Virus record (IMG/VR): IMGVR_UViG_3300022692_000007
DNA: 46,181 bases
Direction: 5' to 3' (one strand)
Origin: a virus
The position numbers and the translations under genes are program-made. A model generated the notes under the pieces. It saw only the letters and a list, made by a program, of their open reading frames with translations, did not search any database and was not told the origin of the DNA. Positions 56-41,234 of the stretch are shown piece after piece. The first letter of the stretch is position 1. Each line of letters begins with the position of its first letter.

Positions 56-70
56 GTGACTTCGTGTCAC
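56..70. repeat. Short palindrome GTGAC-ttcgt-GTCAC at the point where hsdS breaks off
   Basis: 5-bp inverted repeat (56-60 / 66-70) overlapping the premature TGA (67-69) of hsdS. Sequence beyond it is non-coding and AT-rich. Confidence 0.5.
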
Positions 71-1008
71 ATCCTCTGATTATACTTTTCTTCAGTGATA
101 AATCGTTCATTACTAAAATCATGAAAACCAACTTTTATATTATTTAATTGTATAATTGGAATTCCTTCATCTACATATTCCTCATTTTTTAAATCGGAAC
201 CGAAAGGTCCATCAACGAAAGAATAATTATCATCAGAAGCAGCATAATTTAAGTTGTTAATATCCCAATGCTCAGGAATTTCACCAATCCACTCAACACC
301 GCTATCTTTCATAGGCACATCAGGATTTAAACCTTTAGTAACAACTTGATTAATTAAAGCAGTTCTTTTTTCTTCAAGTAATTCTATCAATCGTTCGTTT
401 TTAGCTATTGTTTCGTCAATTTTAGCTGTTTTTTTGTCTAAGTAGTTAGCTATTTGTTGTTGTTCTTTAATAGTAGGCATTAATATTGATACTTTTGCCA
501 AATGTGTTGGTCCAAAATTAGGCTGACATGATCCAGTCATCATCAATCCCAATTGTTCACGAATATATTCAGATTGTAATGCCCATTTAATATAAGGTTG
601 TTTTAATTCATAATCTGATGTAGGATTTTTATTAATTCTAATTGTGCTTGTGTTTAAAATTACAGTTTCATCATCAGTATACTCAGCAACCTTGCCCCAA
701 GAGTTTCCTGAACTAGATAATAATAAATCTCCTTGGTCAACTGTAAAATGTGAATAAGTTTGTTTATATTCATCTTCAGAAATGAATTTTTCATAATTTG
801 AAAAATCAATCCCATTTGACGTAATATTTGTTACACAGATTACACGAACACCATCATCTGTAAATTGCCAATTTCTTAAACCTGGACCTTCTTGGAAGAA
901 AATTAAATTTTTAATTTTATGTATTTCCCAATGAATAGGAATCTTTCCAGCCCAAATATTATTTGAATTTTTATACTCAGGATAAGTTTTGTAACTCACA
1001 ATTTTCAC
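67..1008 (-). pseudogene. hsdS: Type I R-M specificity subunit, truncated within the second target-recognition domain
   Basis: HsdS conserved blocks: YKNSNNIWAGKIPIHW, PTIKEQQQIANYLDKKTAKIDETI...LEEKRTALINQVVTKGL, MKDSGVEWIGEIPEHW. The second TRD starts (GPFGSDLK) but stops after about 70 aa (EEKYNQRM*), with no second coiled-coil. Directly downstream of hsdM. Confidence 0.8.
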
Positions 1009-3015
1009 CTATTTGAGTAATTCTTGAATTTCTGCAGTTATTTTACTAATATCAGCTTCAATTTCTTCTAGTGGTCTTGGAGGTTCATAAACGTAGAAAT
1101 ATTGTGTAAAGTTAATTTCATAACCTACTTTATTTCTTCCTTCGTCATACCAAGCATCTGAATAATATTTTAATACTTCATCCTCAAAGTAATCATCAAT
1201 GTTTTGTACTAATGGTATTTTTTCAGTATCTCTTAAATTGCTGTCTGCTTTTGGTTTACCTTTTTTATCTGTAACATATTCTGCTGCATCATCATGCTCG
1301 GATAATTTCTCAATAACATTTTTAATGAATGCTGGTTTTAAATCAAAATCTTTTAATGCATTTTTAACTTTCGCTTCAAATGTGTTCCAATCTTTGTATA
1401 ATTCATCACCAATTGTTAGTAAAGCATCTTTAATAGCTTCTTGTTGTTTTTTACCTTCTTCTTCCTCAGCCATTTTCACTTCCAAATCTTTGCTTTTACT
1501 TTCAGCTAATTTTTTAAATTGGTTATATGAATAAAGGTTTTCAAGTCTTTCAGAAGTTACTTGATAATTAAGTTGCATCGGTCTTTCAACAGTTATTTTT
1601 GTGTAACCAAAGTCTTCATTATCAAATATTTTTACTTTTTCACTTTCTGTAAAGTCTTTGTAATTGTTAATTATTTTGTTAATGGATTCTTCAGGAATGA
1701 TATGTCTTTTACTTCCTAATGATTTTCTCATTCCTTCAAATTCTTCACGTGCATCAATTAGTTGCACTTTTCCTTCTCTTTGTGCTGTTTTTTTATTTGT
1801 CAATACCCAAACGTATGTTCCAATTCCTGTGTTGAAAAATAGTTGATCAGGTAATGCTACAAGTGCTTCGAGGTAATCGTTTTCAAATATCCATTTACGA
1901 ATATTGCTTTCACCTGAACCAGCATCACCAGTAAATAATGGTGAACCGTTTGTAATTACAGCTATTCTTGAACCACCATTATCTTTAGATTTCATTTTTG
2001 AAATCATGTGTTGGATAAATAACAACTGTCCGTCACTTTTACGTGGCAGTCCTGCTCCGAATCTTCCGTCAAATCCTTTTTCTTCAGCTTCTTTGGTTAC
2101 TACTTCTTTGTCTTGTTCCCAATCACGTCCGTATGGTGGATTTGAAATCATGTAGTCAAATTTATTTTCTGATAATTGGTCATCTGATAATGTGCTTGAA
2201 GGTCCTTTGATGTTTTCTGCATCTTCACCTTTCATTAGCATGTCTGCTTTACAAATTGCATATATTTCATCGTTTATTTCTTGTCCGTATAATACTACAT
2301 CAATATCTGGATTATTGTTGTTTATAAATTCTTGACAGCTTGTAAGCATTCCTCCGGTTCCGCATGCTGGATCATATACCAGTTTAATGCTTCCTGATGT
2401 TTTTTCTTCACCTACAAATAGTAATTCTGTCATTAGTTTTACCACGTCTCTTGGTGTGAAGTGCTCTCCAGCTTCTTCGTTTGATGTTTCTGAGAATTTA
2501 CGGATTAATTCTTCAAATAATGTTCCCATGTCATGGTTTGAAATGTTTTTAGGTGATAAATCAAGGCTTGTTTCATTGAATTTTTTTATTAATAAGTATA
2601 ATAGGTTTGCTTTGGAGAGTTTAGCGATTTGTTTTTCAATATCAAAGTTTTCTAAAATGTCTTTTACGTTTTTGCTGTAGCTTTCTATATAGAATTTGAT
2701 ATTTTCTTCAATATTGTCTGGGTCTTGTAGTAGTGTTTTAAAGTCAAATTTGGAATAATTATAAAATCCTAATTCATTACCTTTTTCATCAACTGATTTA
2801 CTCATTAATATTGGTTCTAAAAAATCAGTTCTGCTTTTATTTGATTCATATGTATCAACTACATTTTGTTTGGAGTGTTCCAATACACTATCAAATCTTT
2901 TAAGTACAGTAAATGGTAAAATTACTTTTTGATATTCGTTTCTTTTGTATGCTCCTCTCAATACTGCATCGGATATGCTCCATATAAATCCAGATATTTC
3001 ACTAATACTTGGCAA
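1009..3015 (-). CDS. hsdM: Type I restriction-modification N6-adenine methyltransferase subunit M
   Basis: Motif I YDPACGTGGML, motif IV SNPPYG, GEHFTPRDVV, LFFNTGIGTYVW. TTG start preceded by GGGTGA RBS. Stop abuts the hsdS start. Confidence 0.95.
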   Translation of the reverse strand: MPSISEISGFIWSISDAVLRGAYKRNEYQKVILPFTVLKRFDSVLEHSKQNVVDTYESNKSRTDFLEPILMSKSVDEKGNELGFYNYSKFDFKTLLQDPDNIEENIKFYIESYSKNVKDILENFDIEKQIAKLSKANLLYLLIKKFNETSLDLSPKNISNHDMGTLFEELIRKFSETSNEEAGEHFTPRDVVKLMTELLFVGEEKTSGSIKLVYDPACGTGGMLTSCQEFINNNNPDIDVVLYGQEINDEIYAICKADMLMKGEDAENIKGPSSTLSDDQLSENKFDYMISNPPYGRDWEQDKEVVTKEAEEKGFDGRFGAGLPRKSDGQLLFIQHMISKMKSKDNGGSRIAVITNGSPLFTGDAGSGESNIRKWIFENDYLEALVALPDQLFFNTGIGTYVWVLTNKKTAQREGKVQLIDAREEFEGMRKSLGSKRHIIPEESINKIINNYKDFTESEKVKIFDNEDFGYTKITVERPMQLNYQVTSERLENLYSYNQFKKLAESKSKDLEVKMAEEEEGKKQQEAIKDALLTIGDELYKDWNTFEAKVKNALKDFDLKPAFIKNVIEKLSEHDDAAEYVTDKKGKPKADSNLRDTEKIPLVQNIDDYFEDEVLKYYSDAWYDEGRNKVGYEINFTQYFYVYEPPRPLEEIEADISKITAEIQELLK

Positions 3016-8217: not shown

Positions 8218-10098
8218 ATGTATTTTAAAAATAAGTTAGTCATTTTAGGGGTATTGATATTTATAATTTTATCAGTTTCTACTGTTTCCGCTGAGGATAA
8301 TATAACTGATATAAATACAAATGACATTAGTGAAGATATTATTTATGATGATGCTCCAGAAGAGAACAATAATAATAATTTAGATGATGATGAATTACTT
8401 TCAACCGATATGAATGATGAGGATAAACTTCAAAAAACTAGTTCGATTTCAACAACCATTACTGTTAATCCGGTTACTATTAATGAGGGAAGTGGATTTA
8501 GTTTTACCGCAAAAGTTAAAGCAAGCAATAATATGAATGTTCCAGGACAAGTTGAATTTAGGTGTGGCAACAATTTTACAAGGGATTTAGACTCAACAGG
8601 TACTGCCAAAATTAGTTTAACTGGTAAATTATCTCCAAAGCTTTATACTTGGACTGCTGTTTATTTAGGCGGAACAACTACTTCTGGATCAAATACATAT
8701 AAATTTTTGACTAGTACAACAACAATTAAATTAACTGTAATGGGTAATGCTGTTGTTACAGCAGATAATTTCAATTCATTTTATCAATCTGGTGAGAAAT
8801 ATAAAATCAAAGTAATAAATTCATATAATAATGAACCAATTATAAATAAAAAAATAAAAGTCTTATTTTACACAGACTCCAATAAGTATACAACTTCATA
8901 TTATTATACCAACAACAACGGTATTTATGAGGGAACAGTTGATAATTTGCCCGGAAATTATAAAATTGTTGCTAGTTTAGATGATTCTTATTATAACTCT
9001 AATCAGGCTTCTTTTAATGTTTCAATTGGTAAAAAACCGGTTAAATTAGTATCCAATCAAATTTCCAATACTCACCCCTATGCTACATTAAAAGTGCAGA
9101 TTATGGATACTTTGGGAAATAAGGTAAATAATGGTTTAGTAGTATTTTCAATTAATGGTAAAACATACTCAGCTAATGTTAAAAATGGAATAGCTACAAC
9201 TAATATTAAACTATCCACTGGAACATATGATTGTGTTGCATCATTTTCAGAAGATAATTCCTATTCAAATAATACTAAATTCAAAGTTGTAGTAAGCAAA
9301 GCTGGTGTAAAATTAAAAACATATAAATTAATTTCAACTACAAAACTTTACTTTAATTTAAAGGCACTTGTTAAAGATACTTCAGGAAATAAGATTAAAG
9401 AAGGTGTAATTAAATTTACTATTAATGGTAAAACATATTCCGTTAATGTTAAAAATGGAATAGCAACTAAAAAAATTAAATTGAAAAAAGCAAAATCCTA
9501 CAAATATAAAGCAACCTTTTCTTCAAAAAATTATCAAACAAAAACATCTTCTTCTAAAGTAATTGTAAAAAAAGCTAAAAAATATTATACATTTAAATAT
9601 GGCAAATTAAAAGGTAAACTTTCATATAAACAATATGTGAAATTACTTAAAGCGTATAATGATGGAAAATACAAAGAAATTTCTGTTAAAACTGGAAAAT
9701 ACAACACATACAAAGTCCCAAAATATACATATAAAAAAGTGACTTCTAAAAAATGGAAATATAAAAAAGTTTTAGCTTCTGAATACTGGAGTTGGGATAG
9801 TGGCAGTGAATGGGAAGATTATGATGACTGGAAAACCTATACTAAAAAAGGTTGGACTTGGTATGGAACATCATATGATGATGAAAGTTATGATGATTAT
9901 TACTATTCTGCTACTTATTATAAACTTAAAAAGAAAGTAAAAGTAACTGAAAAAAAGAAAGTTAAAAACGGGTATAAAAAAGCTAAATACAAAATAAAAA
10001 TGGTTGTATCAAGTACAGAAGGTTATAATGGATTTAGTATTGAATTCTATGATAACTATGAAGGATACTTGGGTGGAGGAAGAAAAAATATAATTTAA
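8218..10098 (+). CDS. Adhesin-like surface protein (signal peptide, Ig-like repeats, Lys/Tyr-rich C-terminus)
   Basis: Signal peptide ...LSVSTVSA-EDN, acidic N-terminal linker, duplicated 90-aa module (INGKTYSANVKNGIAT at 9151; INGKTYSVNVKNGIAT at 9421), K/Y-rich tail. Typical Methanobrevibacter ALP layout. Confidence 0.8.
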   Translation: MYFKNKLVILGVLIFIILSVSTVSAEDNITDINTNDISEDIIYDDAPEENNNNNLDDDELLSTDMNDEDKLQKTSSISTTITVNPVTINEGSGFSFTAKVKASNNMNVPGQVEFRCGNNFTRDLDSTGTAKISLTGKLSPKLYTWTAVYLGGTTTSGSNTYKFLTSTTTIKLTVMGNAVVTADNFNSFYQSGEKYKIKVINSYNNEPIINKKIKVLFYTDSNKYTTSYYYTNNNGIYEGTVDNLPGNYKIVASLDDSYYNSNQASFNVSIGKKPVKLVSNQISNTHPYATLKVQIMDTLGNKVNNGLVVFSINGKTYSANVKNGIATTNIKLSTGTYDCVASFSEDNSYSNNTKFKVVVSKAGVKLKTYKLISTTKLYFNLKALVKDTSGNKIKEGVIKFTINGKTYSVNVKNGIATKKIKLKKAKSYKYKATFSSKNYQTKTSSSKVIVKKAKKYYTFKYGKLKGKLSYKQYVKLLKAYNDGKYKEISVKTGKYNTYKVPKYTYKKVTSKKWKYKKVLASEYWSWDSGSEWEDYDDWKTYTKKGWTWYGTSYDDESYDDYYYSATYYKLKKKVKVTEKKKVKNGYKKAKYKIKMVVSSTEGYNGFSIEFYDNYEGYLGGGRKNII

Positions 10099-10418: not shown

Positions 10419-11186
10419 ATGACACTTCACATTGCATTAGATGGAATTTACGTTAATGTAAACCAGCACATTACTCAAAAACTTGTAGAATATTTGGCCT
10501 CAAAGTCATATGCTGTTAAGACAATTTTTCCACTTGAAGATGAAATAATCCAGTCTATATTGAATAGCTATGATTTAACATTTTCTGAAAAAGCACTACT
10601 AACAGCACTTGACAGAAGCATTACCTGGAACAATCAAAACTTTAGTAATTATGATATTGTTATTTGGCAGACAAGCATTCTTTCAAGCTATGTTTTTCAC
10701 ACAGATCAAAATGTAAAGCCATCATTTATTAAAAGCATCAACAGATTTGTTCCCAATATGGATATCATTGTTGTGGTTCAGCCACTTGAGGAAAAAAATC
10801 AAATCATTCAGAAATTCAATGATTTTACAAAGCAATTTGATAATGTGTATCCTGTGAATTTTGTTAATGGTGCAATTGATCTAACCTTTAAAGAAGCTAT
10901 TGAGACTATTTTTGAGGTTTTACCAACTTGCAATTGGTGTGGACGTCTTTTTACAAAAACCACACACTTTAAAAAGTACTGCTCTAAAAATTGCAAGGAT
11001 TATGCAAAAGAAGAACAAAATCGCTTGAACTTTCGTAACTATTACAAAAGATACAAGGACACAATGAGTGAGGCTCAAAAAGGTGCTTTGGGAAGCAGAG
11101 GTGCAAATCTTCACGCTCATGCAAATTCTGATCATGAGGTTGAAGCACGTTTAATAAGTAATGAAAAGAAACGATTGGGATTATAG
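10419..11186 (+). CDS. Degenerate thymidylate-kinase-like fold fused to a CxxC...YCSxxC zinc finger
   Basis: HIALDG, ALLTALDR, IVIWQTSILSSY and PNMDIIVVV align by eye to dTMP kinase blocks, but the P-loop GxGK(S/T) is missing. C-terminal CNWCGRLF-x8-YCSKNC. Confidence 0.55.
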   Translation: MTLHIALDGIYVNVNQHITQKLVEYLASKSYAVKTIFPLEDEIIQSILNSYDLTFSEKALLTALDRSITWNNQNFSNYDIVIWQTSILSSYVFHTDQNVKPSFIKSINRFVPNMDIIVVVQPLEEKNQIIQKFNDFTKQFDNVYPVNFVNGAIDLTFKEAIETIFEVLPTCNWCGRLFTKTTHFKKYCSKNCKDYAKEEQNRLNFRNYYKRYKDTMSEAQKGALGSRGANLHAHANSDHEVEARLISNEKKRLGL

Positions 11187-11741: not shown

Positions 11742-11961
11742 TGATAGAAGCTCAAATATCAAGGACCTTGTGAGATTTTCAACAAAAGCAACATTGACCG
11801 TTCCAACAATTCTTTTAGATGAAGCTACTGATGATTTTGAAGTATACAATGATTTTAAAATTGCAATGTTTTGTTTAAAAAATGATGATGGATTAATTTT
11901 AACTGAAAAAGAAATTGATGAGGAAATGTCTGAAATCACCATTGAACTTAAGGAGGATTAG
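11734..11961 (+). CDS. Small acidic hypothetical protein (75 aa from ATG 11734)
   Basis: GAGG RBS. Overlaps the previous stop within the operon. Confidence 0.55.
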   Translation: MCDDRSSNIKDLVRFSTKATLTVPTILLDEATDDFEVYNDFKIAMFCLKNDDGLILTEKEIDEEMSEITIELKED

Positions 11962-11962
11962 C

Positions 11963-12304
11963 ATGTCTAAGCCATTGACTGAAACAATATCCTGGAGGCG
12001 GACAATCTGGACCTACGGATTTGTTAAAACCACTCTTTCAGGTTCACTAATCTCAACAGGTGTGGTTTTGATATTTAATGGTGTAACAGAACATCCATTG
12101 TTTAATGGATTTAATGAAATAGCTATTTTTGCCGGTTTAATTGCAATAGTGTTGGCAATTGTTGTTATCACAAGCATTGACAGGTATAAGGAAAAAACCA
12201 AAAAAGAAGAGCTTGAGGCTATTGACAGACAAATCGATGAAAAAGCCAAACGCATTGCAGAAGAAAAAGTGTTGGAATATCTGAGGGCGATTGAAAATGA
12301 ATAA
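11963..12304 (+). CDS. Two-TM membrane protein with C-terminal coiled coil (113 aa)
   Basis: AGGAGG RBS before ATG 11963. TM segments LSGSLISTGVVLIF and IAIFAGLIAIVLAIVVI. Confidence 0.6.
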   Translation: MSKPLTETISWRRTIWTYGFVKTTLSGSLISTGVVLIFNGVTEHPLFNGFNEIAIFAGLIAIVLAIVVITSIDRYKEKTKKEELEAIDRQIDEKAKRIAEEKVLEYLRAIENE

Positions 12305-13133
12305 GTACAATTCTTTTTTTAAAACCGTTGGAGGATCGGAAGGTGATAGATGCTTTTATCCAACAAGACTTGATTTATACGGTAAAGGCTGTTTTTTCAA
12401 CTGCAATTACTGCTATGCAAAACAGGTTTTAGATTTTAGAAAACTTTGGAACCCTGCTGATGTTGGAGTTGCACCACTACTCCAGGTTTACCGCACAATC
12501 GATAAAATTCCAGCTGGAAGTGTTGTAAGATTAGGTGGTCTAACTGACTGTTTCCAGCCAATTGAGCTTAAATACAGAAACACCTATAATGCAATTAAAA
12601 GACTTAACGAGAGAGGTATTCATTATCTGATTGTTACAAAATCTGATTTGATTGTTGAAGATGAATATATCAATATTTTAGATAATAATTTGGCCCATAT
12701 TCAAATTTCAATACCAACAAATAATAATGAGGTTTTGGCAAAAACTGATAATGCACCATGCTTTGAGAGAAGAAGAAACGCTATTGAGATTTTATTTAAT
12801 CTTGGTTTTGATGTATCTTTGAGATTATCACCATTTTTATTTGACACAGCTGACTATGATGTGATAAATGATATTGCTGTAGATAAGTGTCTTGTTGAGT
12901 TTTTGCGAACAAAACCAAGTCTTGAAAAAGAATTAAATGACTTTATTGATTTTGAACAATACTCTCTTAAATCTGGAGGGTACCGTCATTTGACACTTGA
13001 TAAAAAACTTGAAGTATTGTCCAAATTAGATTTTAAAGAATTATCTGTTTGTGATGATGTAGATTCTCATTATGATTATTTTACAGATAATATTAACTAC
13101 AATCCGAATGATTGTTGTAATTTAAATACATAG
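12297..13133 (+). CDS. Radical SAM enzyme, spore-photoproduct-lyase-like family
   Basis: CX3CX2C motif (GCFFNCNYCYA) preceded by RLDLY. LGGLTDCFQP, LIVTKS, QISI, VSLRLSP core. Terminal NDCCNL. Confidence 0.85.
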   Translation: MNKYNSFFKTVGGSEGDRCFYPTRLDLYGKGCFFNCNYCYAKQVLDFRKLWNPADVGVAPLLQVYRTIDKIPAGSVVRLGGLTDCFQPIELKYRNTYNAIKRLNERGIHYLIVTKSDLIVEDEYINILDNNLAHIQISIPTNNNEVLAKTDNAPCFERRRNAIEILFNLGFDVSLRLSPFLFDTADYDVINDIAVDKCLVEFLRTKPSLEKELNDFIDFEQYSLKSGGYRHLTLDKKLEVLSKLDFKELSVCDDVDSHYDYFTDNINYNPNDCCNLNT

Positions 13134-13157
13134 AAAAATTTAACGGAGTCGCCAAAA

Positions 13158-13823
13158 ATGATAGAAGTAGAAAAGATAAAAATAACTGATTTAATCCCTA
13201 GTGATTATAATCCAAGAATAATGCCTGAAAACGAGTCCACCAAATTAAGAAATAGCTTAGAGACTTTTGGTTTAGTGGACCCTATTGTAATCAACCTTAA
13301 AAACAACCATATCATTGGAGGTCACCAAAGGTTTGAGGTTTTAATTGACCAGCACCTTGAAGATAATAAAATCTTTGATGAGTTGAATTTAATCAGGCTT
13401 GGTGATATTGGTTGGGTATTTACCGATACTGAATTAACTGTTGAGTCTGATGACCATGAAAAAGCGCTGAACTTGACTTTAAACAAGATTGGCGGTGAAT
13501 GGGATACTGAGAAATTATTCACTGTCTTGGAAGAATTGGAAGTTAATAATTTTGATTTGGGCCTAACAGGTTTTGATGGTTTTGATGAGGAAATTGAAAT
13601 CAAAGGTTTACTTGACAAGATGGAATTTACAGACCCTCAAAAACAAGCAGTTAGCAGTGAATCTTCTGATAGAGAAACCTTTGATGATGATTTTGATGAC
13701 GATGATGATTCTGGTATTGGTTTTTATGAGATTACATTATTATTTGACAGTGAAGATGAAATGACTGAGGCATTTGATAAATTAGTAGAAGAAGGTTATA
13801 ATTGCAGGATGTCAGATTCATGA
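13158..13823 (+). CDS. ParB/Srx-like N-terminal domain protein of the type linked to viral DNA modification
   Basis: DLIPSDYNPR, FGLVDPIVIN, IIGGHQR, LNLTLNKIGGEWD, DLGLTGFD. Acidic linker and small C-terminal domain. Confidence 0.85.
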   Translation: MIEVEKIKITDLIPSDYNPRIMPENESTKLRNSLETFGLVDPIVINLKNNHIIGGHQRFEVLIDQHLEDNKIFDELNLIRLGDIGWVFTDTELTVESDDHEKALNLTLNKIGGEWDTEKLFTVLEELEVNNFDLGLTGFDGFDEEIEIKGLLDKMEFTDPQKQAVSSESSDRETFDDDFDDDDDSGIGFYEITLLFDSEDEMTEAFDKLVEEGYNCRMSDS

Positions 13824-14575
13824 ACATTTTTTTAGCAGCCTCAGAACATCAGTGTTTGCACAATTATGTTCAAGAGACCAATATAAGGCCGATAAACCAT
13901 CTTTTCAGCTATTTTTATATTCAGCAAAAGAAGATGTATGAGGATTATCTATTTTTCAAATCCAAATCTGAAAGGATTTTGATTGACAGTGGAGCTCATA
14001 CATTCCACACAGCTAAGGATATTGATTTTACTGAGTTTACTGTGAACTACTCAAAGTTTATAAAACAGACCGACACTTCAAATGTTGTTGGGTATTTTGA
14101 AATGGATATTGACAACCGTATAGGTTTTAAGAATGTTTTGAAGTTGAGAAAAATCATTGAAGAGGTTACAGATAAAGTTATTCCGGTTTGGCACAAGAAT
14201 CGTGGATTTAAAAAGTTCAAAAGGATGTGCAGCAATTATGATTATGTTTCAATATCCTGTCTTCCTATTGAGGGTATACCTGATCATGATTTGATTAAGT
14301 TTGCAAATGTTGCACATGATTATGATTGTAAAATTCATGGTCTTGGAGGTACCAGGAAATTCATTTTGAATCATGTTCCCTTTGATAGTGTTGATAGTGC
14401 CAGTTGGCTTTTTAGTGCTGTTAATGGAAGATACAAAAGTAAACACATTGACAGAAATAGCTTGACCTATTGTGAAAAACTTGTTTTGAGTTTACTTGAT
14501 TGGAGAAAAAAGCAGAGATATTACGAAAAATATTGGAGAGAGAAAAATAAGAGGTTAAAAAATGGTAAAATATGA
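13820..14575 (+). CDS. dpdA: tRNA-guanine-transglycosylase-fold protein, viral DpdA-like DNA base-exchange enzyme (251 aa)
   Basis: LIDSGAHTF, FEMDID, IPVWH, KIHGLG and FDSVDSASW match the TGT barrel and catalytic Asp motifs. Lacks the tRNA-TGT zinc site. ATGA overlap with the ParB gene. Confidence 0.75.
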   Translation: MNIFLAASEHQCLHNYVQETNIRPINHLFSYFYIQQKKMYEDYLFFKSKSERILIDSGAHTFHTAKDIDFTEFTVNYSKFIKQTDTSNVVGYFEMDIDNRIGFKNVLKLRKIIEEVTDKVIPVWHKNRGFKKFKRMCSNYDYVSISCLPIEGIPDHDLIKFANVAHDYDCKIHGLGGTRKFILNHVPFDSVDSASWLFSAVNGRYKSKHIDRNSLTYCEKLVLSLLDWRKKQRYYEKYWREKNKRLKNGKI

Positions 14576-15251
14576 TTATAATGTTAGAAATGATTTGAAA
14601 TTGAATTTTACACAGAAAAAAATTGTGTTGATTACTATATTTGCGGTTGCTGGAGTTTTAAGTGATTTGCTTGCAACTAAAGTTTGCAGTTGGGGATTTT
14701 TCAGCATTGAATGCGGTTGTATATTGTTCCCGGTTTGCTATTTGGTGGCTGATGTAATCACTGAGGTTTTTGGAGAAAAGACCATGATTAAAACAGCACT
14801 GTTGGGAATGAGTATGAAGGTTATGATGGTTATTTGTGGTTTGTTGTGTATTATGATGCCGTTTGATCCGGCCACTTTTACAGCTCAACCTCATTTGGCT
14901 TATGTGTTCGGTTTTGTTCCAAGAATCACCTTTGCAAGTCTTTGCGGTTATATTGTAGGTCAGTTTGTAAATGCTCGTTTGATGACAGTAATTGGAAATT
15001 ATACAAATGGTGAGCATCTGTTTTTACGTACCATTGGCTCAACTGTTGGTGGAGAATTGGTGGATACAATTTTATTTATTGGAATTGCTTTTGTTGGAAC
15101 CATGCCTCCAGTAATGTTGCTTGGTTTTATTTTAACTCAATATGTGATGAAGGTTTTAATTGAAACGGTACTTCAACCTGTTACATATAGGGCGGTTTCC
15201 TGGTGCAGAAGTGATGAATCCAGCATCATTTATAGAAAAGAAGATTTGTAA
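14562..15251 (+). CDS. yhhQ: Queuosine-precursor (preQ0/preQ1) transporter, YhhQ/VUT family
   Basis: Multi-TM protein with DVITEVFG, PRITFASLCGYIVGQFVN and RTIGSTVGGELVDTILF motifs. Overlaps the dpdA-like gene by 14 nt. Confidence 0.85.
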   Translation: MVKYDYNVRNDLKLNFTQKKIVLITIFAVAGVLSDLLATKVCSWGFFSIECGCILFPVCYLVADVITEVFGEKTMIKTALLGMSMKVMMVICGLLCIMMPFDPATFTAQPHLAYVFGFVPRITFASLCGYIVGQFVNARLMTVIGNYTNGEHLFLRTIGSTVGGELVDTILFIGIAFVGTMPPVMLLGFILTQYVMKVLIETVLQPVTYRAVSWCRSDESSIIYRKEDL

Positions 15252-15283
15252 GTGATTATTTTTTATTTTTTTAAATCACTTAC
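15248..15283 (+). terminator. Hairpin with T-rich loop closing the 10.4-15.25 kb operon
   Basis: GTAAGTGATT (15248-15257) / AATCACTTAC (15274-15283), with T-tracts in the loop and downstream. Confidence 0.5.
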
Positions 15284-15325
15284 TCTCAATTTTTTATTTA
15301 AAGAGTTTTAAAGTCTTTAAATTAG

Positions 15326-17951: not shown

Positions 17952-18650
17952 ATGGAAATCTGGGAAGAGCGTTTTTATGATGAAAAGTACGGCCTGGAGC
18001 CTCCAGTATCATTTAGACATTTCTCCAGGCTGTTGATAAAAAATGACAGGAATTTAAGAAAATTTGCAGAAGAGCTGGTTTATGAACAAATTGCAGATGA
18101 AAAAAAGCGAGCAGTAATGAAAGGTGAAAAATACAAAAAACTAACTGAAAAACAAATCCAAACGAGGATTAAAAAAAAGTATAGTTCAGTTACAACCAAT
18201 TCAGCCAAATACAAATACCAAATGCGCTTCGATGCTTATGATAATCATTTTAAAGAATTACATATTAAAAGCAAAGAAAAAGAGGTTATTGAATGGGAAT
18301 CTGAGCAGCTGAAATTTGCAAAACAAAGATGCAACTATCACAATGACACTTTACAAAAACTTCACGAAGCTCCAGAACGTGACCAAAAACAAGCTGACGG
18401 ATCAGTGATAAAAGGAATTCCACTTGATAAAAAAGTAGACAGTGAAGCTGAAAACCAGCGTGCATATGATAAAAGTCTTGACAGTGTTTACAAGCTATTA
18501 TTTGGAGGTGTTCAAAAACGTGAAAACCACAATCACAATGACAATAGTGGTGAAATGAACATTAATAACAAATTTAATGTAAAAACACTTGCTGAAGAGG
18601 AAATTGAAGCTGATGAGTATTTCAAGCAATTAGATGAGGAATTACAATAA
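17952..18650 (+). CDS. terS: Probable terminase small subunit
   Basis: Immediately upstream of and overlapping terL. Helical, charged, suitable size. GAGGTGA RBS. Positional call only. Confidence 0.55.
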   Translation: MEIWEERFYDEKYGLEPPVSFRHFSRLLIKNDRNLRKFAEELVYEQIADEKKRAVMKGEKYKKLTEKQIQTRIKKKYSSVTTNSAKYKYQMRFDAYDNHFKELHIKSKEKEVIEWESEQLKFAKQRCNYHNDTLQKLHEAPERDQKQADGSVIKGIPLDKKVDSEAENQRAYDKSLDSVYKLLFGGVQKRENHNHNDNSGEMNINNKFNVKTLAEEEIEADEYFKQLDEELQ

Positions 18651-20040
18651 TCAATTCTGTGGTATTATGAATGTAGATGCAACAACTGATTGGCGAAAAC
18701 TATGGCTACAGCAAAGAAACCATTTTAAAGCCACTATTTACAATAATATATTCATACCACAAAACCCTTTTGGTAGACAAGCAAGATTTATCATTTATCC
18801 TGGAGAAGAATCGTTTTACGGTGGCCAAGCAGGTGGTGGAAAAAGCTCAGCCCTTTTAATGAGTGCACTCCAATACGTTGAAGAAAAACACATTCCAGAA
18901 GATCAAAACAAATTAAAGTATAATGCACTTATTATACGTAGAACTCTTGAAGATTTGGACATGCCAAATGCAATAATGGATCGGGCAAAACAATGGCTGC
19001 TTCCAAAAGAAGATGAAGGATTACTTGTTTGGAAAGACCAAAAGAAAAGATTTATCTTCAACAGTGGTGCAACACTAACTTTCAGATATTTGTCCCACAA
19101 CAAGCATTTAAACTCTTATCAAGGTGCTGAGCTTCAGTTTGTCGGCTTTGATGAGCTCACACAGTTTCCAGAAAACCAATACAATTATCTTCATTCACGT
19201 TTACGTAAACTTGAAGACTCAGATATTCCAATCAGAATGCGCGGAGCATCAAATCCTGGAGGTATTGGTCATGATTGGGTTAAAAAAAGATTTGTAGATG
19301 ATGAATCTAAATTACCTTTTATTCCTTCAGCTTATACTGACAACCAATACTTGAACCAGGAAGAATATTCAAAGCAATTAGACAAGCTTGATGAGCTTAC
19401 ACGTTTGCAGCTTAAATATGGTGATTGGAATGCTGTTTTAAGAAGTGGTTTACTTGTCTCACGTGATAAATTAAATAGTGCTTTAATCTCATATCAAAAC
19501 ACCTACAAAACATGGCAGCCTAATTTCTGTACAATTGGAATTGACCCTGCAAGTACCGGACATGATAAATTTGCAATGAGCTGTCTTGTATACTTTAATA
19601 ATGGAAATATTGTACTTGTAGATCTGGATTCAACACCTTCAGCATATCCTGAAGAATTGCTTAGAAATTTCATTATTCGAAATGCTCATTGGAACCCATA
19701 CATTATTAATTTTGAGCAGGAACCTGGAAGTGATTCAACATATGCCTTGAAGCATTGGCAACACATATTAAGAGATTTGGTTAAAAAATATGGAATTACA
19801 GTGAAGAAAACTCAAACCAGCCACTCCAAATACAATCGTGCAAGACCAACAGCAAATATGATCAGACAAAACAGACTGTTTTTTGATGATAGAATAAATG
19901 CTGAAAAGCTAAGGAGCTTGTTTAATCAATATGTTTATATTCATCCGGATAAAGAAGTTATGAAAGAATATCCTTCTCCTGATGAATTAGATAGTTTAGG
20001 ATATGCTTTTATGGAGATTCAGAATGTAATTAGGTTATAA
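18634..20040 (+). CDS. terL: Terminase large subunit
   Basis: Walker A YGGQAGGGKS, Walker B FVGFDE, coupling motif GASNPGG, nuclease IGIDPA...D and PDELDS. Confidence 0.93.
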   Translation: MRNYNNQFCGIMNVDATTDWRKLWLQQRNHFKATIYNNIFIPQNPFGRQARFIIYPGEESFYGGQAGGGKSSALLMSALQYVEEKHIPEDQNKLKYNALIIRRTLEDLDMPNAIMDRAKQWLLPKEDEGLLVWKDQKKRFIFNSGATLTFRYLSHNKHLNSYQGAELQFVGFDELTQFPENQYNYLHSRLRKLEDSDIPIRMRGASNPGGIGHDWVKKRFVDDESKLPFIPSAYTDNQYLNQEEYSKQLDKLDELTRLQLKYGDWNAVLRSGLLVSRDKLNSALISYQNTYKTWQPNFCTIGIDPASTGHDKFAMSCLVYFNNGNIVLVDLDSTPSAYPEELLRNFIIRNAHWNPYIINFEQEPGSDSTYALKHWQHILRDLVKKYGITVKKTQTSHSKYNRARPTANMIRQNRLFFDDRINAEKLRSLFNQYVYIHPDKEVMKEYPSPDELDSLGYAFMEIQNVIRL

Positions 20041-20072: not shown

Positions 20073-23000
20073 CTACTTTTTAACTTTAACAGTCACTTTC
20101 TTGGTAACTTTACTATATGTTGCTGTGTAAGTTACTTTTTTACCCTTTTTAAGTTTTTTGAGAACTGATTTTTTAATAGTTATTTTTGCAACACCTTTGG
20201 CATTGGTTTTGGCTTTGTAGGATTTCTTATTAAACTTGAATTTAATAACTTTACCTTTGACAGCTTTACCATTTATTTTCAATGTTGCTTGGATAACCAG
20301 TTTTTTAGCAGATCTTTTGACCTTGACCTTTTTAAGTGTCAGTGTTGTTTTTGTCACAGGTTTTGGAGCAGGCTTATTCACTGTTACCTTGCCTGTTTTT
20401 GTGAATGATGAATATTTACTATCTCCAGAGTAGGTGATTGAGTAGGAGTATGCAGCATTGGCCAAATCAGGCACTTTAACGTTAGCCACACCATTGACAA
20501 CATCAAATTTATAGTCTTTACCGCCAATGCTTAAAGTGACAGTACCAGTTGCATCGCTAGGCAATTTTACAGTTACTGTTCCAGAAGCGGAACTAGGTAA
20601 AGTCGGAATAACAATATCTTTTTCATCAATATCATATGTGTACTTTCCGGTTGAACTGGATTTAACAAATAATTTATTAGTTTTATTATCATTTGTAACC
20701 GTGTTAATTGAAATAATATCATAAATTCCGATATTTAAATTCAATTTTAAACTAGCAACACCATCATCATTGGTCCAAACAACCTTATCTTCTCCATTAA
20801 TTTTAAATAAAACAGGAACATTGACTAATTTATCTCCAAAGTCATCTAAGAAAATTACATTAAATTCAAAATCAGTATTATTTACAGTATAAACATCATT
20901 TGATTCAATAGTTGAGAAGATTAACAAATAATTTGTTCTATTTTCATTGGCTATAGGATTAATAATCATTATGCGATAATAACCTATTTCCAAATCTTTA
21001 TCTAATATTGCAACACCATTCGAATCTGTCTGTGTTGAATAAAATGTGCCATTCACATTAAACATCACATATTTATTAACTAATAACTCTCCATATTCAT
21101 CATAGAACGTTGCTTGGAAATGCTCATCACTACCATAAACAATCCTAGTATCGTATGATTCAATAGGGTAAAAAGAAAATACTTTAAATATTCTTGTCAA
21201 TGAAACTGATTCAAAATTATCATCACCACTATAAATTATCTCTATTTCATGTTCACCCATCTCAGGTTCAAGAATATACTCATCACCAACATCCATAGAG
21301 TATTCATATTCACCATCAACATAAATATCAAATGTTCCAGTAGCATCACTTACGACACTTGGTCTAACAACTAAATCTTCACCTTCAACAACATTATTAA
21401 TAATCAAATCCAAATGAGGATTTTCTAATGGCAAAACATTAATTTCATCTGTTAGATTGCAAGAGGTATAATTAGTATTGCCGGAATAAAAGAGTGTGAT
21501 TCTGTATGTATCAACTTCCAAATCGTCTATGTTAAATTCAACATATCCATCAGTTATTTCGGAAGTATAGTTTCTACCGTTAAAGTTAACTGTAAATTCT
21601 CCTGTTAAATCTTCAGGTTGAATAATATTAATTGTAAACAAACCATTAACATTTACATCATCATATTCGATTTTTATTGTTGGAACCATTTTATATACTT
21701 CAAAAAATGCTCCACAACCAGTTCTTGAGACATTATTTACAAAATCAATATGGATAGAATAAACACCCGCTGCCAAATTAGGAATGGTTATGCTACCTTT
21801 ACGATTTTCAACATTACTATAAAAAGTCTGATTTAAAATTGAAGTTGAAATAATTCCTGAAACAGAATCTTGAAGCTCCACTTCAATAATTACATCATTA
21901 TTATAAGTAACATTTCTAACAGTAATGTTCATAGGTTCCTGTAAAACGGTAATGACACTTGAAGCTGAACAATAATTCATGTTTATAGTGTCATTGTTGC
22001 TTACCGTTAAGTCATAGTCTCCTCCCACTAAATTTTTTGCAGAAATTCTTCCAGTACCATTTGCATCAGTTTGGACATAATAGGTTTGGTAAGTAAGTTG
22101 AGGCATGTACAATTTAAGAATTATCCCTGGAACTGGCAATCCACTGTTAACGTTAGTGACATGAATTGTGACCTTATTGTCATCACCATAATATTCTTTA
22201 TATGGATCGATTTCGATTTTAATATTTGCTTTTATAACAGTAATGTTAGTTGTCAGTTTTTCAGATTTTAAAGCACCTGAAGTACTCATTTCAACACTAT
22301 AGCTCCCAACTTCAAGCTGTTTCATGCTGAGTGTACCGCCACTTTGATCGAAAATGTACAAGTTAGCTGTTTTAAATGAAGCTATACCATTTTCATCAAT
22401 GGTTGCAGAGTGGCCAACTGAAATGCTTCCTCTAAGGAGCAATGATAATTTTTTACCTTTTAATGAAGTAGTGTTATCATCCACATCAGTTACTTTAAAT
22501 GTGAAGTTACCGTCTTGGTATTCGTTAACTGTGTTTGCTGCAACAATTTGGACATTGTAAATCCTGTTTAAATTAATGTCTTTAGTTGCATTTACGATTC
22601 CTGTATATTTAATGTTTAAGTTTGCGGTGGTAAAGTTACCGTTTTCAAGAGTAAATATTACTGTTCTATTAACTAATTCCCATTCAGTAACTGTGATGTT
22701 TTTGGTTTCATTTCCATCATTATAGGTTACTGTAATGTTTAAGTTTTCTTTACTGAAATCATAGGTATCCACGCCATTGGTAATATTGATAATATGGATT
22801 TCACCTTTTTTAGTGGAATTCACATTAATTGAATTGCTGTTTATTTTAATTTCAGCATCATCATTTGTATTAATATCATTTAATTCATTATTTTCATTGT
22901 TTGTCTTACTATGAAGTTTATTTGTTTCATAATATGAATCAATTTTTCCAGTATCTTCCATAGAACTCATATCATTATTCTCTTTAGAAATAATATTTTC

Positions 23001-23138
23001 ATTTTCCACAGAAATAATTTCATCACTTTGATATTCACTAAACACAGTTGTTTCATTCGCATCACTAGCTACTGCACTAGCAATACTGAACAAACAAATT
23101 AGTAAACAAATGAATACTAAACTCTTTTTATATTTCAT
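20073..23138 (-). CDS. Large adhesin-like surface protein (1021 aa), antisense, between terL and portal
   Basis: GGGAG RBS then MKYKKSLVFICLLICLFSIASAVA signal peptide. Repeated Ig-like modules (YSGD, TDSNGVA). Lys-rich C-terminal domain (KAKTNAKGVAKITIKK). Confidence 0.85.
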   Translation of the reverse strand: MKYKKSLVFICLLICLFSIASAVASDANETTVFSEYQSDEIISVENENIISKENNDMSSMEDTGKIDSYYETNKLHSKTNNENNELNDINTNDDAEIKINSNSINVNSTKKGEIHIINITNGVDTYDFSKENLNITVTYNDGNETKNITVTEWELVNRTVIFTLENGNFTTANLNIKYTGIVNATKDINLNRIYNVQIVAANTVNEYQDGNFTFKVTDVDDNTTSLKGKKLSLLLRGSISVGHSATIDENGIASFKTANLYIFDQSGGTLSMKQLEVGSYSVEMSTSGALKSEKLTTNITVIKANIKIEIDPYKEYYGDDNKVTIHVTNVNSGLPVPGIILKLYMPQLTYQTYYVQTDANGTGRISAKNLVGGDYDLTVSNNDTINMNYCSASSVITVLQEPMNITVRNVTYNNDVIIEVELQDSVSGIISTSILNQTFYSNVENRKGSITIPNLAAGVYSIHIDFVNNVSRTGCGAFFEVYKMVPTIKIEYDDVNVNGLFTINIIQPEDLTGEFTVNFNGRNYTSEITDGYVEFNIDDLEVDTYRITLFYSGNTNYTSCNLTDEINVLPLENPHLDLIINNVVEGEDLVVRPSVVSDATGTFDIYVDGEYEYSMDVGDEYILEPEMGEHEIEIIYSGDDNFESVSLTRIFKVFSFYPIESYDTRIVYGSDEHFQATFYDEYGELLVNKYVMFNVNGTFYSTQTDSNGVAILDKDLEIGYYRIMIINPIANENRTNYLLIFSTIESNDVYTVNNTDFEFNVIFLDDFGDKLVNVPVLFKINGEDKVVWTNDDGVASLKLNLNIGIYDIISINTVTNDNKTNKLFVKSSSTGKYTYDIDEKDIVIPTLPSSASGTVTVKLPSDATGTVTLSIGGKDYKFDVVNGVANVKVPDLANAAYSYSITYSGDSKYSSFTKTGKVTVNKPAPKPVTKTTLTLKKVKVKRSAKKLVIQATLKINGKAVKGKVIKFKFNKKSYKAKTNAKGVAKITIKKSVLKKLKKGKKVTYTATYSKVTKKVTVKVKK

Positions 23139-23436
23139 ATAATTTCTCCCTAATTTTATTTTAATTGATATATATTTATGCACAAGATATGTATTAATAG
23201 TTTCGATTTAAAAAAATATTAAAACCACCTATTTTCTTTAATAGAATAATATTCTAATAATTATCACTAAATCAACTGACACTATTTTTATTAGAGTATA
23301 TATTGAAGGTGCATTTAATTTTACAAATTATGTTGCCGAATTTTACTTAGAAAATATTGCCACTAATGTGTCTAACCATTTTGTTTTTCCTTCTTAAAAA
23401 AATGTACCTTCATAATTCACCTTTTGAGCTGATTAA

Positions 23437-39497: not shown

Positions 39498-41234
39498 ATG
39501 AGCTTTTTAACTGTTGAAGATGTTAATAGTGTTAATTTAAATCACATTAACGAATATTATGAGCTGGATACCGGAAAAATTTCACAACAGGAATTTAGGA
39601 ACGTCTTATATGATTTTTGCATTGTCTCTCATACAATTAACGGTTCTGAGCATACATTTACTTTTGAAGTACACAATAGCTTATGGCAAGGTAAATGTTA
39701 TTTTAGAAAGTCCGACGGAAGTCTGATTAATCGAACCTCAACTAATAATAATTATAATAATGGGGTCATTACTTTAATAACGGAAGAATCAAGTGTTAAA
39801 TTATATTTGTACTTATGTAGTTTTACAACATCTTTTAGTTACAGTATGGCAGATTTGGTTACTCTTGACGACTATTCAACAATTATTTTTACTAAAGCTG
39901 ATGAAGGCAAAAATGTTACTATTTATAGTAGATTTTTATCTAATGGCAATAGACAGGCTGCTGGAACGGTTACATTAAATTCAGGTGTCAATTACATTTC
40001 AGGAACTATAAAAGAGTATATTCTTTGTTTATTAAAAAAAACAGACCTTATTTATAATTTAGATAATGATGTTACTGTAGGTATTGTAAATAACGTACCT
40101 TTGAATGTTGATACTGATTATTTGCCTGGTGGGAATTTAGTCGATGAAGAATTACTTGATATTATTGTTAAATATAATGATATTGAAATTCCTGTTTATT
40201 ATGATGAAAATATTGATGATTATTGCTTTGATTTGGATTTAACTAATAAACGAGACAATAAACCTGTAAAATTAGAAATAATAGTGAATGAAATCGATTT
40301 AATAAATAATAGTATTGATAATGTTATTTTAAATTGTAATTATTCATCTGCAAGTAGTTATGAGGAATTGCAAAGTACTATAGTTTCAGGTGCTGAGATT
40401 ATAGAATTGGCCGGTGACATTACTTTAAACAATAATTTGATTATCCCTCATAATTTATTGATTTTAGCAAATAATCATAGCATTTATCTGGGTTCTCATA
40501 ATATTCAAATCCCAAATAATGTTTCTTTTGAAATAGATGGTGGAAACTTCTTTAATGGAATAAATTGCTTTAATCAAAAAATTAATAGTAAATTAGTTTT
40601 GAAAAACTGTAGATTTAATAATGCAACAATTAGCGATAACTACAAGGGAAGTGTGATATCAGCTGATTATGATGGAATTGATGATAGCATTATAACAGAA
40701 TTGATTGGCTGTACCTTTATTAATTGCCATCATACCATTTATCATGGTGGTGAATTAACCATTAAAAATTGCAAAGCATTATTCAATAGTTTTAATGATG
40801 CTGTTGATACGGATTATCCAGCATTTCTAACAGCTTATGATGGTACAGTTGAGATAACAAATTCTACTTTTGACATTGATTATGACATTGATAATTTATG
40901 TGATAATGGTGTTGATATTAAGTTTGCAGAAGCATTGGTGGGATTAGGTGAAAATACAGTATTTAATGGAGCCACCACCAATCAATTGAAGTATAATAAT
41001 AGCTTACCATTCTTTGAATCTTCTTTCAATAATAAAAGCCATATTTTTGTCAAATATTATTATCCTCAAATCAACGCATGTGTTATCTCAAGTCCGGTTT
41101 TAGGAAAAGAGGACTCTTCAGTTTGTCACATGATTTTAGGTACTGATTGGGTTTACAAGAATAATGTTCAAGTAACTCGATTAAGTTGGCAAAGTGAAAA
41201 TGATGTTCGCAAAATTGAGTGGAGGGATATTTAA
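39498..41234 (+). CDS. Tail fibre/spike-like protein with parallel beta-helix region
   Basis: SSYEELQSTI...IELAGDITL onset and NCRFNN/GCTFINC/NCK/NSTF repeats resemble the beta-helix of Methanobacteriales adhesins. Confidence 0.6.
   Translation: MSFLTVEDVNSVNLNHINEYYELDTGKISQQEFRNVLYDFCIVSHTINGSEHTFTFEVHNSLWQGKCYFRKSDGSLINRTSTNNNYNNGVITLITEESSVKLYLYLCSFTTSFSYSMADLVTLDDYSTIIFTKADEGKNVTIYSRFLSNGNRQAAGTVTLNSGVNYISGTIKEYILCLLKKTDLIYNLDNDVTVGIVNNVPLNVDTDYLPGGNLVDEELLDIIVKYNDIEIPVYYDENIDDYCFDLDLTNKRDNKPVKLEIIVNEIDLINNSIDNVILNCNYSSASSYEELQSTIVSGAEIIELAGDITLNNNLIIPHNLLILANNHSIYLGSHNIQIPNNVSFEIDGGNFFNGINCFNQKINSKLVLKNCRFNNATISDNYKGSVISADYDGIDDSIITELIGCTFINCHHTIYHGGELTIKNCKALFNSFNDAVDTDYPAFLTAYDGTVEITNSTFDIDYDIDNLCDNGVDIKFAEALVGLGENTVFNGATTNQLKYNNSLPFFESSFNNKSHIFVKYYYPQINACVISSPVLGKEDSSVCHMILGTDWVYKNNVQVTRLSWQSENDVRKIEWRDI

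Follow-up and report, generated by a model that had tools for sequence, protein, structure and literature searches.

A probable salvage-type 7-deazaguanine DNA-modification module, next to a separate radical SAM enzyme, in a virus of methanogens

In the Queuovirinae (Escherichia phages CAjan and 9g), the transglycosylase DpdA1 exchanges guanine for preQ0 after replication, which protects the DNA from restriction, and some of these phages encode a preQ0 transporter (PMC6884629). The dpdA gene of CAjan is essential for dPreQ0 in CAjan DNA (PMC6884629). Phages that carry DpdA only, and that use host or imported precursor, are a recognised group of 76 phages (PMC6884629). The bacterial system, exemplified by Salmonella Montevideo, consists of DpdA, a preQ0 insertase with the fold of tRNA-guanine transglycosylases (TGT), and the ParB-like ATPase DpdB, a partner from the ParB superfamily whose ATPase activity DpdA needs for preQ0 insertion (PMC10164549); yhhQ is embedded in some bacterial dpd clusters (PMC5699537). 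A small phage ParB-like protein beside a post-replicative DNA base-modifying enzyme is also known: the phage thymine dioxygenase 5mYOX176 needs the ParB-like activator ParB176 on double-stranded DNA (O'Toole et al. 2026, PMC13229309). Here, we compare these systems with a four-gene locus (positions 12297-15251) in the IMG/VR virus record IMGVR_UViG_3300022692_000007. This DNA was analysed over its full length of 46,181 nucleotides, referred to as the window. The locus codes for a radical S-adenosylmethionine (SAM) enzyme (rSAM), a ParB-like protein, a DpdA-type transglycosylase and a transporter of the YhhQ family.

The locus probably represents a salvage-type 7-deazaguanine DNA-modification module (ParB-DpdA-YhhQ), accompanied by a separate rSAM enzyme. 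The following features are relevant (aa, amino acids; SPL, spore photoproduct lyase):

12297-13133, plus strand: SPL-like rSAM enzyme, 278 aa (Pfam Radical_SAM, E 1.9e-12; SPL-like fold)
13158-13823, plus strand: ParB-like protein, 221 aa (phrog_620, 2e-33; N-terminal ParB/Srx nucleotide-binding domain, acidic C-terminal half)
13820-14575, plus strand: short DpdA-type guanine transglycosylase, 251 aa (phrog_887, 1.9e-34; TGT fold)
14562-15251, plus strand: YhhQ/COG1738 queuosine-precursor (preQ0/preQ1) transporter, 229 aa (Vut_1, 3.9e-42; TIGR00697)
15248-15295, plus strand: hairpin (10-bp stem, 16-nt loop) and T6 tract, overlapping the yhhQ stop codon

A reading made from the sequence alone had described four tightly packed, co-oriented genes, closed by a hairpin and placed ahead of the packaging genes. 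Open reading frames (ORFs), translations and folding bear this out. A 24-nt gap separates the rSAM and ParB-like genes, the ParB-like gene and dpdA share an ATGA overlap, and dpdA and yhhQ overlap by 14 nt, as computed from the ORF coordinates. The motifs are found in the translations: CFFNCNYC (CX3CX2C) in the rSAM, GGHQR in the ParB-like protein, and LIDSGAH, HGLG and FDSVDS in the DpdA-like protein. The large terminase subunit is encoded downstream, at 18634-20040.

The DpdA-like protein matches the PHROGs family phrog_887, annotated as "queuine tRNA-ribosyltransferase". When compared by tblastn, the protein matches 133 of 50,697 phage records, among them Bacillus phage BCD7 (2e-20) and Streptomyces phage BRock (9e-11), the transglycosylase genes of which are listed as DpdA in the supplement of Hutinet 2019 (PMC6884629). 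A hidden Markov model (HMM) built from the clade of the window DpdA matches the DpdA proteins of CAjan (8.8e-31), BCD7 (1e-46) and BRock (4e-28). It does not match the 683-aa archaeosine TGT (arcTGT) of the host at E<=10. By sequence, the protein thus groups with phage DpdA and not with the tRNA-acting TGTs, and the distinction on which the sequence-only reading hinged falls on the DpdA side. The homology to CAjan DpdA is distant (about 24% identity; 251 aa compared to 306 aa). The family became visible only by PHROGs, by tblastn to phage DpdAs, by the clade HMM and by fold; a comparison to the sequences in the PDB, with the single protein or with a profile, returned no match.

The AlphaFold model (predicted local distance difference test, pLDDT, 93.5) shows a TGT-type (beta/alpha)8 barrel only. 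The protein ends soon after the barrel, without the tRNA-binding C-terminal extension, and no CxCxxC-type zinc-site motif occurs in the 251-aa sequence. Residues D56, S57, D96, D98, G176 and D192 are invariant in 34 homologues, and D189 is nearly so; D56 belongs to the DSG motif, D189 and D192 to FDSVDS. In a fold search (VIA), residues 1-251 match Cap10 (Z 15.6), a bacterial TGT (Z 15.2) and DpdA 7ui4 (Z 14.7; root-mean-square deviation, rmsd, 3.5 over 238 residues), and the model also aligns at full length to archaeal and human TGTs, with Z in the range of 14.7-15.6. The tRNA TGT is thus as good a structural match as DpdA, and the host archaeosine pathway uses preQ0. Both would suit an enzyme that acts on host or viral tRNA and not on DNA, altering the amount of deazaguanine in tRNA and thereby favouring viral translation. 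Such a function is nevertheless very improbable. The clade HMM matches the DpdA of CAjan and not the arcTGT of the host, there is no Pfam TGT match at E 0.01, and a bare barrel devoid of the zinc motif has no room for the C-terminal tRNA-binding domains of arcTGT. In addition, the near-obligate partner (see below) is from the ParB family, which is characterised on DNA, and the window contains no tRNA genes.

Two observations concern related proteins. Metagenome-assembled genomes (MAGs) of Methanobrevibacter contain ORFs of about 250 aa with a weak Pfam TGT match (G002:C112:4071-4439 and G003:C117:998-1399). They may represent another small TGT-like family; only the G002 ORF was compared to the DpdA clade HMM, and it has no match at E<=10. 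A 377-aa ORF (P0036) from a 3.1-kb metagenome contig joins DpdA residues 1-221 to the first half of YhhQ (239-349). Either the fusion is genuine, or it results from a frameshift or an assembly artefact. We set it aside as evidence for a DpdA-YhhQ fusion, as it covers the first half of YhhQ only and stems from a single short contig.

The gene neighbourhood was analysed in 15 loci from GTDB genomes and in two sets of 80 viral loci each, one collected with the rSAM as the seed and the other with a DpdA alignment. HMMs of the four families were run over all ORFs of these loci. The viral loci are seeded by pattern and biased to this DpdA clade, and some of the contigs are incomplete. Stricter thresholds were applied for the final rSAM count because the "rSAM" near DpdA in one locus (L164) proved to be QueE, caught by the rSAM HMM, and was rejected. 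Among the 69 non-redundant DpdA loci with full flanks, 68 have the ParB-like gene, 39 have yhhQ, 5 have queC/D/E and folE instead, and 10 have the SPL-like rSAM. For the GTDB loci with an intact dpdA, the counts are ParB 13/13, YhhQ 10/13 and rSAM 1/13. Their hosts are Clostridia, Lachnospiraceae, lactobacilli, a Verrucomicrobium, two Methanobrevibacter and one from Methanomicrobiales. The latter, a MAG, shows the permuted order YhhQ-DpdA-ParB (L182, 5345-7361) and extends the trio to a second order of methanogens. From these counts, the conserved unit is ParB-DpdA, usually together with a precursor source.

The coupling of the ParB-like gene to dpdA is tight. Of 83 viral loci, 80 have the ParB-like gene upstream of dpdA in the same orientation; the median distance between the two is -4 nt, and an overlap is seen in 70 of 88 gene pairs. 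This agrees with the role as a partner that had been assigned to the ParB-like protein on the basis of the window. The protein has a match to ParB_N that is under the Pfam cut-off (E 2.6e-4), and besides phrog_620 (ParB-like) it matches phrog_498, which represents the N-terminus of ParB-methyltransferases (1e-32), the N-terminus of MTase_II from PADLOC (9e-22) and, in the PDB, Spo0J (6sdk, E 4.6e-4). In its GGHQR box (GxxR), G55 and R58 are invariant in 26 DpdA-linked ParB homologues. In relatives, the ParB N-domain is fused to DNA methyltransferases (L098; phrog_498; MTase_II).

A complex of DpdA and the ParB-like protein was predicted with a score of 0.54, while the best of three controls scored 0.00, and is rated as "weak support". 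Contacts agree to at least 42% between the runs, and the pLDDT of the partner is at least 70. Of 80 solved complexes, 58 pass the mark that was applied, as do 2 of 110 mismatched pairs; passing scores of 0.60 or less comprise only 7 of the 80 solved complexes and both passing mismatches. Because the gene order gives a strong prior, we read the modelled complex as mild support for a direct partnership. By analogy to DpdB and ParB176, the ParB-like protein is predicted to activate DpdA or to act as its partner, and it may do so for the rSAM too.

The fourth gene would account for the supply. YhhQ scores 107.6 bits with TIGR00697 ("queuosine precursor transporter"), for which the cut-off is 50.95, and this profile match at equivalog level predicts preQ0/preQ1 as the substrate. 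The sequence-only reading had found no folE, queD, queE or queC in the window and had concluded that the virus scavenges or imports the base. When the proteins of Bacillus phage BCD7 were compared to the window by tblastn, no homologue of QueC, QueD, QueE or FolE was detected, and the salvage interpretation gains further support from the relatives of the host. The two Methanobrevibacter MAGs that carry a related DpdA (see below) encode QueC (E 1e-64) and arcTGT (663-685 aa, E 1e-90), so such hosts make preQ0. Both also carry chromosomal YhhQ genes; between the viral YhhQ and the chromosomal copy chosen for comparison, the identity is only 36%. Across the DpdA loci, yhhQ alternates with the que genes, which ties this DpdA clade to 7-deazaguanines.

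According to this reading, region 13158-15251 would be a conserved three-part module for the post-replicative 7-deazaguanine modification of viral DNA. YhhQ would import preQ0 or preQ1 from gut or rumen fluid, adding to the small pool of precursor that the host makes for archaeosine. DpdA would then swap guanine in double-stranded viral DNA for the imported base, with the translationally coupled ParB-like protein as its activator on duplex DNA, in parallel to DpdB and ParB176. The expected product is DNA with dPreQ0 (or dPreQ1) that would be resistant to host restriction.

Several points weigh against this reading. The fold search cannot tell DNA-acting from tRNA-acting TGTs, as the Z values are within 1 of each other. 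The DpdA-like protein is matched neither by Pfam TGT (E 0.01) nor by NCBIfam or PADLOC (E<=1), and no PADLOC Dpd model matches the ParB-like protein (scan at E<=1; the Dpd content of that library was not verified). The predicted complex of DpdA and the ParB-like protein is a weak pass only, and ParB176 variants mutated in NTP-binding residues activate without impairment (O'Toole et al., PMC13229309). Neither yhhQ nor que genes are within reach in 25 of the 69 DpdA loci. Phages that have DpdA only may be unmodified, as is the case for Mycobacterium phage Orion, or may contain only traces, as in Salmonella phage 7-11, where 0.02% of G is modified (both PMC6884629). Finally, ParB-like ORFs occur in the phage pre-terminase region without DpdA or rSAM (21 of 143), so part of the adjacency of rSAM and ParB could be positional.

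The last point would also fit a ParB-like protein that is an ordinary phage gene for partition, packaging or a nuclease, residing in the variable pre-terminase region, with DpdA and the rSAM working without it. In a Fusobacterium phage, phiFN37, a stretch of 12 kb contains three ParB-like genes. No ParB-like gene neighbours the validated dpdA of CAjan or the dpdA genes of BCD7 and BRock, and DpdA from phage 9g alone puts preQ0 into plasmids in E. coli (PMC6884629). We nevertheless consider it improbable that the gene is a bystander. In the clade, only one of the 69 loci is devoid of it, and the start and stop codons usually overlap by 4 nt. The trio is kept even when the order is permuted (L182), the N-domain is fused to DNA methyltransferases, there is experimental precedent in DpdB (PMC10164549) and ParB176 (PMC13229309), and the predicted complex, albeit a weak pass, scores 0.54 compared to 0.00 for its best control.

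We thus retain the ParB-coupled module as the preferred reading, and its relation to the described systems can be specified. Compared to the Queuovirinae, the window lacks folE and queC/D/E, the host is a methanogenic archaeon, and the clade has a near-obligate coupled ParB-like gene, which CAjan, BCD7 and BRock do not have. Bacterial DpdA/DpdB resembles the window in having a TGT-fold enzyme with a ParB-superfamily partner, and the two partners share a GxxR-type NTP box (DGQQR in DpdB, GGHQR in the window). The window DpdA differs by the missing Zn-site motif, which in TGT and bacterial DpdA is a Cys cluster plus His. Further, dpdC and the restriction genes dpdD-K are absent from the window, the ParB-like protein has 221 aa, and in PADLOC the DpdA-like protein has no match while the ParB-like protein matches MTase_II only. 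The roles would also differ, Dpd being a cellular restriction-modification system and the window module presumably serving viral counter-defence. In the 5mYOX family, ParB-dependent and ParB-independent subclasses are known, and DpdA appears to be divided likewise. 5mYOX176 is, however, from another catalytic family (an Fe/2OG dioxygenase that acts on thymine), and the publication (PMC13229309) mentions neither DpdA nor a radical SAM enzyme.

Among cultured phages, the best match to the window DpdA is the DpdA of Fusobacterium phage phiFN37 (OR492271; 34% identity). Its genes CDS0147-0144 show the same order ParB-DpdA-YhhQ, with a start-stop overlap of ParB and DpdA. The phage has a bacterial host, an extra gene for a 144-aa protein between DpdA and YhhQ, and no radical SAM enzyme, and its annotation is automatic only.

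The rSAM has its CX3CX2C cluster motif at residues 32-39. It had been described as SPL-like rather than QueE-like, and structural comparison of the model (pLDDT 82.7) arrives at the same view. The best match is SPL 4fhc (VIA Z 14.8, rmsd 3.3, 235 residues; the next match has Z 13.3), while QueE from B. subtilis is at rank 25 with Z 10.1. With Foldseek, SPL is likewise first (E 7e-8; next 1e-5). A QueE model is absent among the Pfam and NCBIfam matches. The best NCBIfam models are SplB-type (rSAM_mob_pairB, PA0069, Rv2578c), all far under their cut-offs; rSAM_mob_pairB scores 60.9 bits compared to a cut-off of 410. Pfam gives only Radical_SAM and a sub-cut-off Fer4_12 match but no SPL domain, and PF20903 (SPL) is recorded for only a few homologues. 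RaSEA is not named by any NCBIfam match; a direct comparison to RaSEA or a search for ArcS was not made. Beyond the cluster motif, C19, C85, C252, C273 and C274 are kept in 88-97% of 88 homologues (counting those with a residue at the position; C85 in 91%), and Y124 is conserved in 98%. The five extra cysteines could form an auxiliary site for a metal or an Fe-S cluster, or could include a hydrogen-donor cysteine as in SPL, where the hydrogen-atom relay comprises a Cys and a Tyr (C140 and Y98). Although SPL is the best structural match, the sequence identity is 14%, and the window host is from an anaerobic gut and does not form spores. Another SPL-like rSAM, gp53 of phage M6, reshapes a DNA modification that has already been installed (PMC8989533). 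These two precedents indicate that the SPL fold can work on DNA bases. Genes for thymidine hypermodification (kinase, aGPT-Pplase, PLP enzyme) were not seen among the annotated recurring neighbours of the rSAM.

The rSAM family is viral and has 3,368 homologues, the best 120 listed of which all have at least 60% identity. In the 50,697 phage records, tblastn matches only two unannotated faecal contigs. MT835521, a 42.5-kb faecal phage, has an rSAM with 47% identity, and none of ParB, DpdA and YhhQ was detected in it by tblastn. The rSAM genes are surrounded by accessory genes, among them those for methyltransferases and SSB, and terminase genes follow a few kb downstream. Of 73 non-redundant rSAM loci, 58% have a co-oriented ParB-like gene at a distance of up to 3 kb; for DpdA and YhhQ, the share at this distance is 19%.

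The sequence-only reading had proposed that the rSAM acts after DpdA, using the preQ0 or preQ1 already placed in the DNA to form a novel hypermodified base, and that the ParB-like protein engages the DNA for either enzyme. The four genes are indeed contiguous and in the same order in the window virus and its closest relatives (L173, L094, L006, L015). All 10 of the 69 DpdA loci that have the rSAM also have YhhQ or que genes, compared to 34 of the 59 others. The frequency of DpdA near rSAM genes, about 19%, is far above that in phage records in general, and gp53 of M6 is a precedent for an SPL-like rSAM that acts on an installed modification. The distribution of the rSAM speaks against the proposal. 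About 80% of the rSAM loci are devoid of DpdA and YhhQ, and homologues with 70-73% identity adjoin ParB or a ParB-methyltransferase fusion without DpdA. Ten rSAM-containing virus records without DpdA in the vicinity were searched over their full length: one has DpdA at a distance of 11 kb, found with the same profile, while six that are 92-100% complete have no DpdA anywhere. An enzyme for dPreQ0-DNA should not persist in genomes that are unable to make its substrate. In the rSAM tree, the association with DpdA needs at least 8 gains or losses, and the close relatives L054 and L049 differ in DpdA. A second Methanobrevibacter provirus (L174) has the ParB-DpdA-YhhQ trio without the rSAM. That the rSAM elaborates the inserted base is thus unparsimonious, and we give the proposal little credence.

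From the DpdA-free loci, the complete genomes and the tree, the rSAM has a function that is independent of deazaguanine, and its most constant partner is the same ParB family. In a quick tree of the ParB-like proteins, those linked to DpdA and those linked to the rSAM only are interleaved. In the preferred reading, the rSAM, as a member of a large SPL-related phage family, most likely catalyses a radical reaction of its own on DNA, perhaps with the help of the same ParB-like protein. It would be an accessory that DpdA modules have gained and lost repeatedly, and not a step of the deazaguanine pathway. It is tempting, if still doubtful, to speculate that the SPL-like rSAM and the ParB-like protein are a second DNA-modifying pair, widespread among phages of gut and rumen, so that in the window one ParB-like activator serves two unrelated enzymes. 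If so, virion DNA would carry 7-deazaguanine and, in addition, a new mark from anaerobic radical chemistry. That the new mark is placed on the deazaguanine itself is much less likely than this already tentative scenario.

Other arrangements of the rSAM were observed. In the contig of GCA_016295295.1 (L188, 1-7000), it is found with a second radical SAM enzyme, a xanthine/uracil permease, an N6/N4 methyltransferase, ParB, rubrerythrin, an ASCH protein and an MjaI-type restriction enzyme; the permease is another nucleobase importer beside ParB and the rSAM. In L097 (3858-6849), ParB is followed by a 436-aa weak radical SAM match and then by the SPL-like rSAM (73% identity to that of the window), which resembles the "radical SAM mobile pair" of NCBIfam, and genes similar to ADP-ribosyltransferase toxins are nearby. 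In nine loci (L077, 7374-8522, and 8 others), the rSAM gene is followed, after about 0.5 kb and in the same orientation, by a gene for a 382-aa ABC-type ATPase.

The window codes for a terminase, a prohead protease, a tail tape-measure-like protein, a baseplate protein and a lysin. The lysin (44330-45316, plus strand) has a pseudomurein-binding repeat and a C39-like cysteine peptidase domain, with no match to a classical Pei peptidase family. The repeat places the host among the methanogens with a pseudomurein cell wall. The window is best explained as the DNA of a tailed virus or provirus whose host is a Methanobrevibacter-type methanogen from rumen or gut, and we regard this assignment, taken jointly with the modification module, as probable. 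Conservation of the four-gene neighbourhood in related proviruses had been named as a check. The neighbourhood is conserved in a Methanobrevibacter MAG from goat gut, which has the same four genes in the same order and a DpdA that is 96% identical to that of the window; in L174, the rSAM is missing. A second Methanobrevibacter MAG has a DpdA homologue with 65% identity.

What is new is the host range, a methanogen virus with a phage-type DpdA. This extends DpdA-type DNA modification, as predicted here, to viruses of methanogens; no mention of it was found in the published descriptions of Methanobrevibacter viruses that were searched. The ParB coupling of this DpdA clade is only hinted at in print (PMC6392294) and is absent from the main surveys of phage DpdA (including PMC6884629). 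This ParB-coupled clade, compared to the uncoupled DpdA of Queuovirinae, suggests ParB-dependent and ParB-independent subclasses of DpdA, as for the phage thymine dioxygenases. The recurrent pairing of the SPL-like rSAM with ParB is undescribed in the literature searched. As the same ParB family also flanks this rSAM in many uncultured phages, ParB-like proteins may be general access factors for enzymes that reach or flip bases in duplex DNA. The pairing also points to a possible unrecorded DNA modification that is made without oxygen. For methanogen viruses from rumen and gut, modified DNA would have consequences for restriction, cloning and nanopore base-calling.

Some details of the surroundings are of interest. 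The assigned rSAM start (ATG at 12297) agrees with the N-termini of homologues; a TTG is also present at 12291. The first 8 nt of the rSAM gene are shared with an upstream ORF (11915-12304), which is itself preceded by more small co-oriented ORFs. The four genes are thus the end of a longer co-directional block and not a self-contained operon. The hairpin stem (15248-15283) has -9.9 kcal/mol (z -3.29; equalled or beaten by 0 of 200 shuffles) and is followed on its 3' side by the T6 tract at 15290-15295; together, they are a probable end of the transcription unit. A bacterial-type terminator scan missed the hairpin because its loop is too long and its stem has few G-C pairs. For the small ORFs that flank the module on both sides, PHROGs and Pfam were uninformative except for a weak HNH-like tail in 10419-11186. 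Genes for HsdS and HsdM of a type I restriction-modification system are located at the left edge of the window (67-3015, minus strand) and belong to the virus or to flanking host DNA. Three large adhesin-like proteins with Ig-like domains (Big_3_5/Big_1) are encoded within the virus (8218-10098 and 41219-43381, plus strand; 20073-23183, minus strand). The last of these, with 1036 aa, is encoded on the opposite strand between the terminase and the presumed portal gene, in the manner of a moron.

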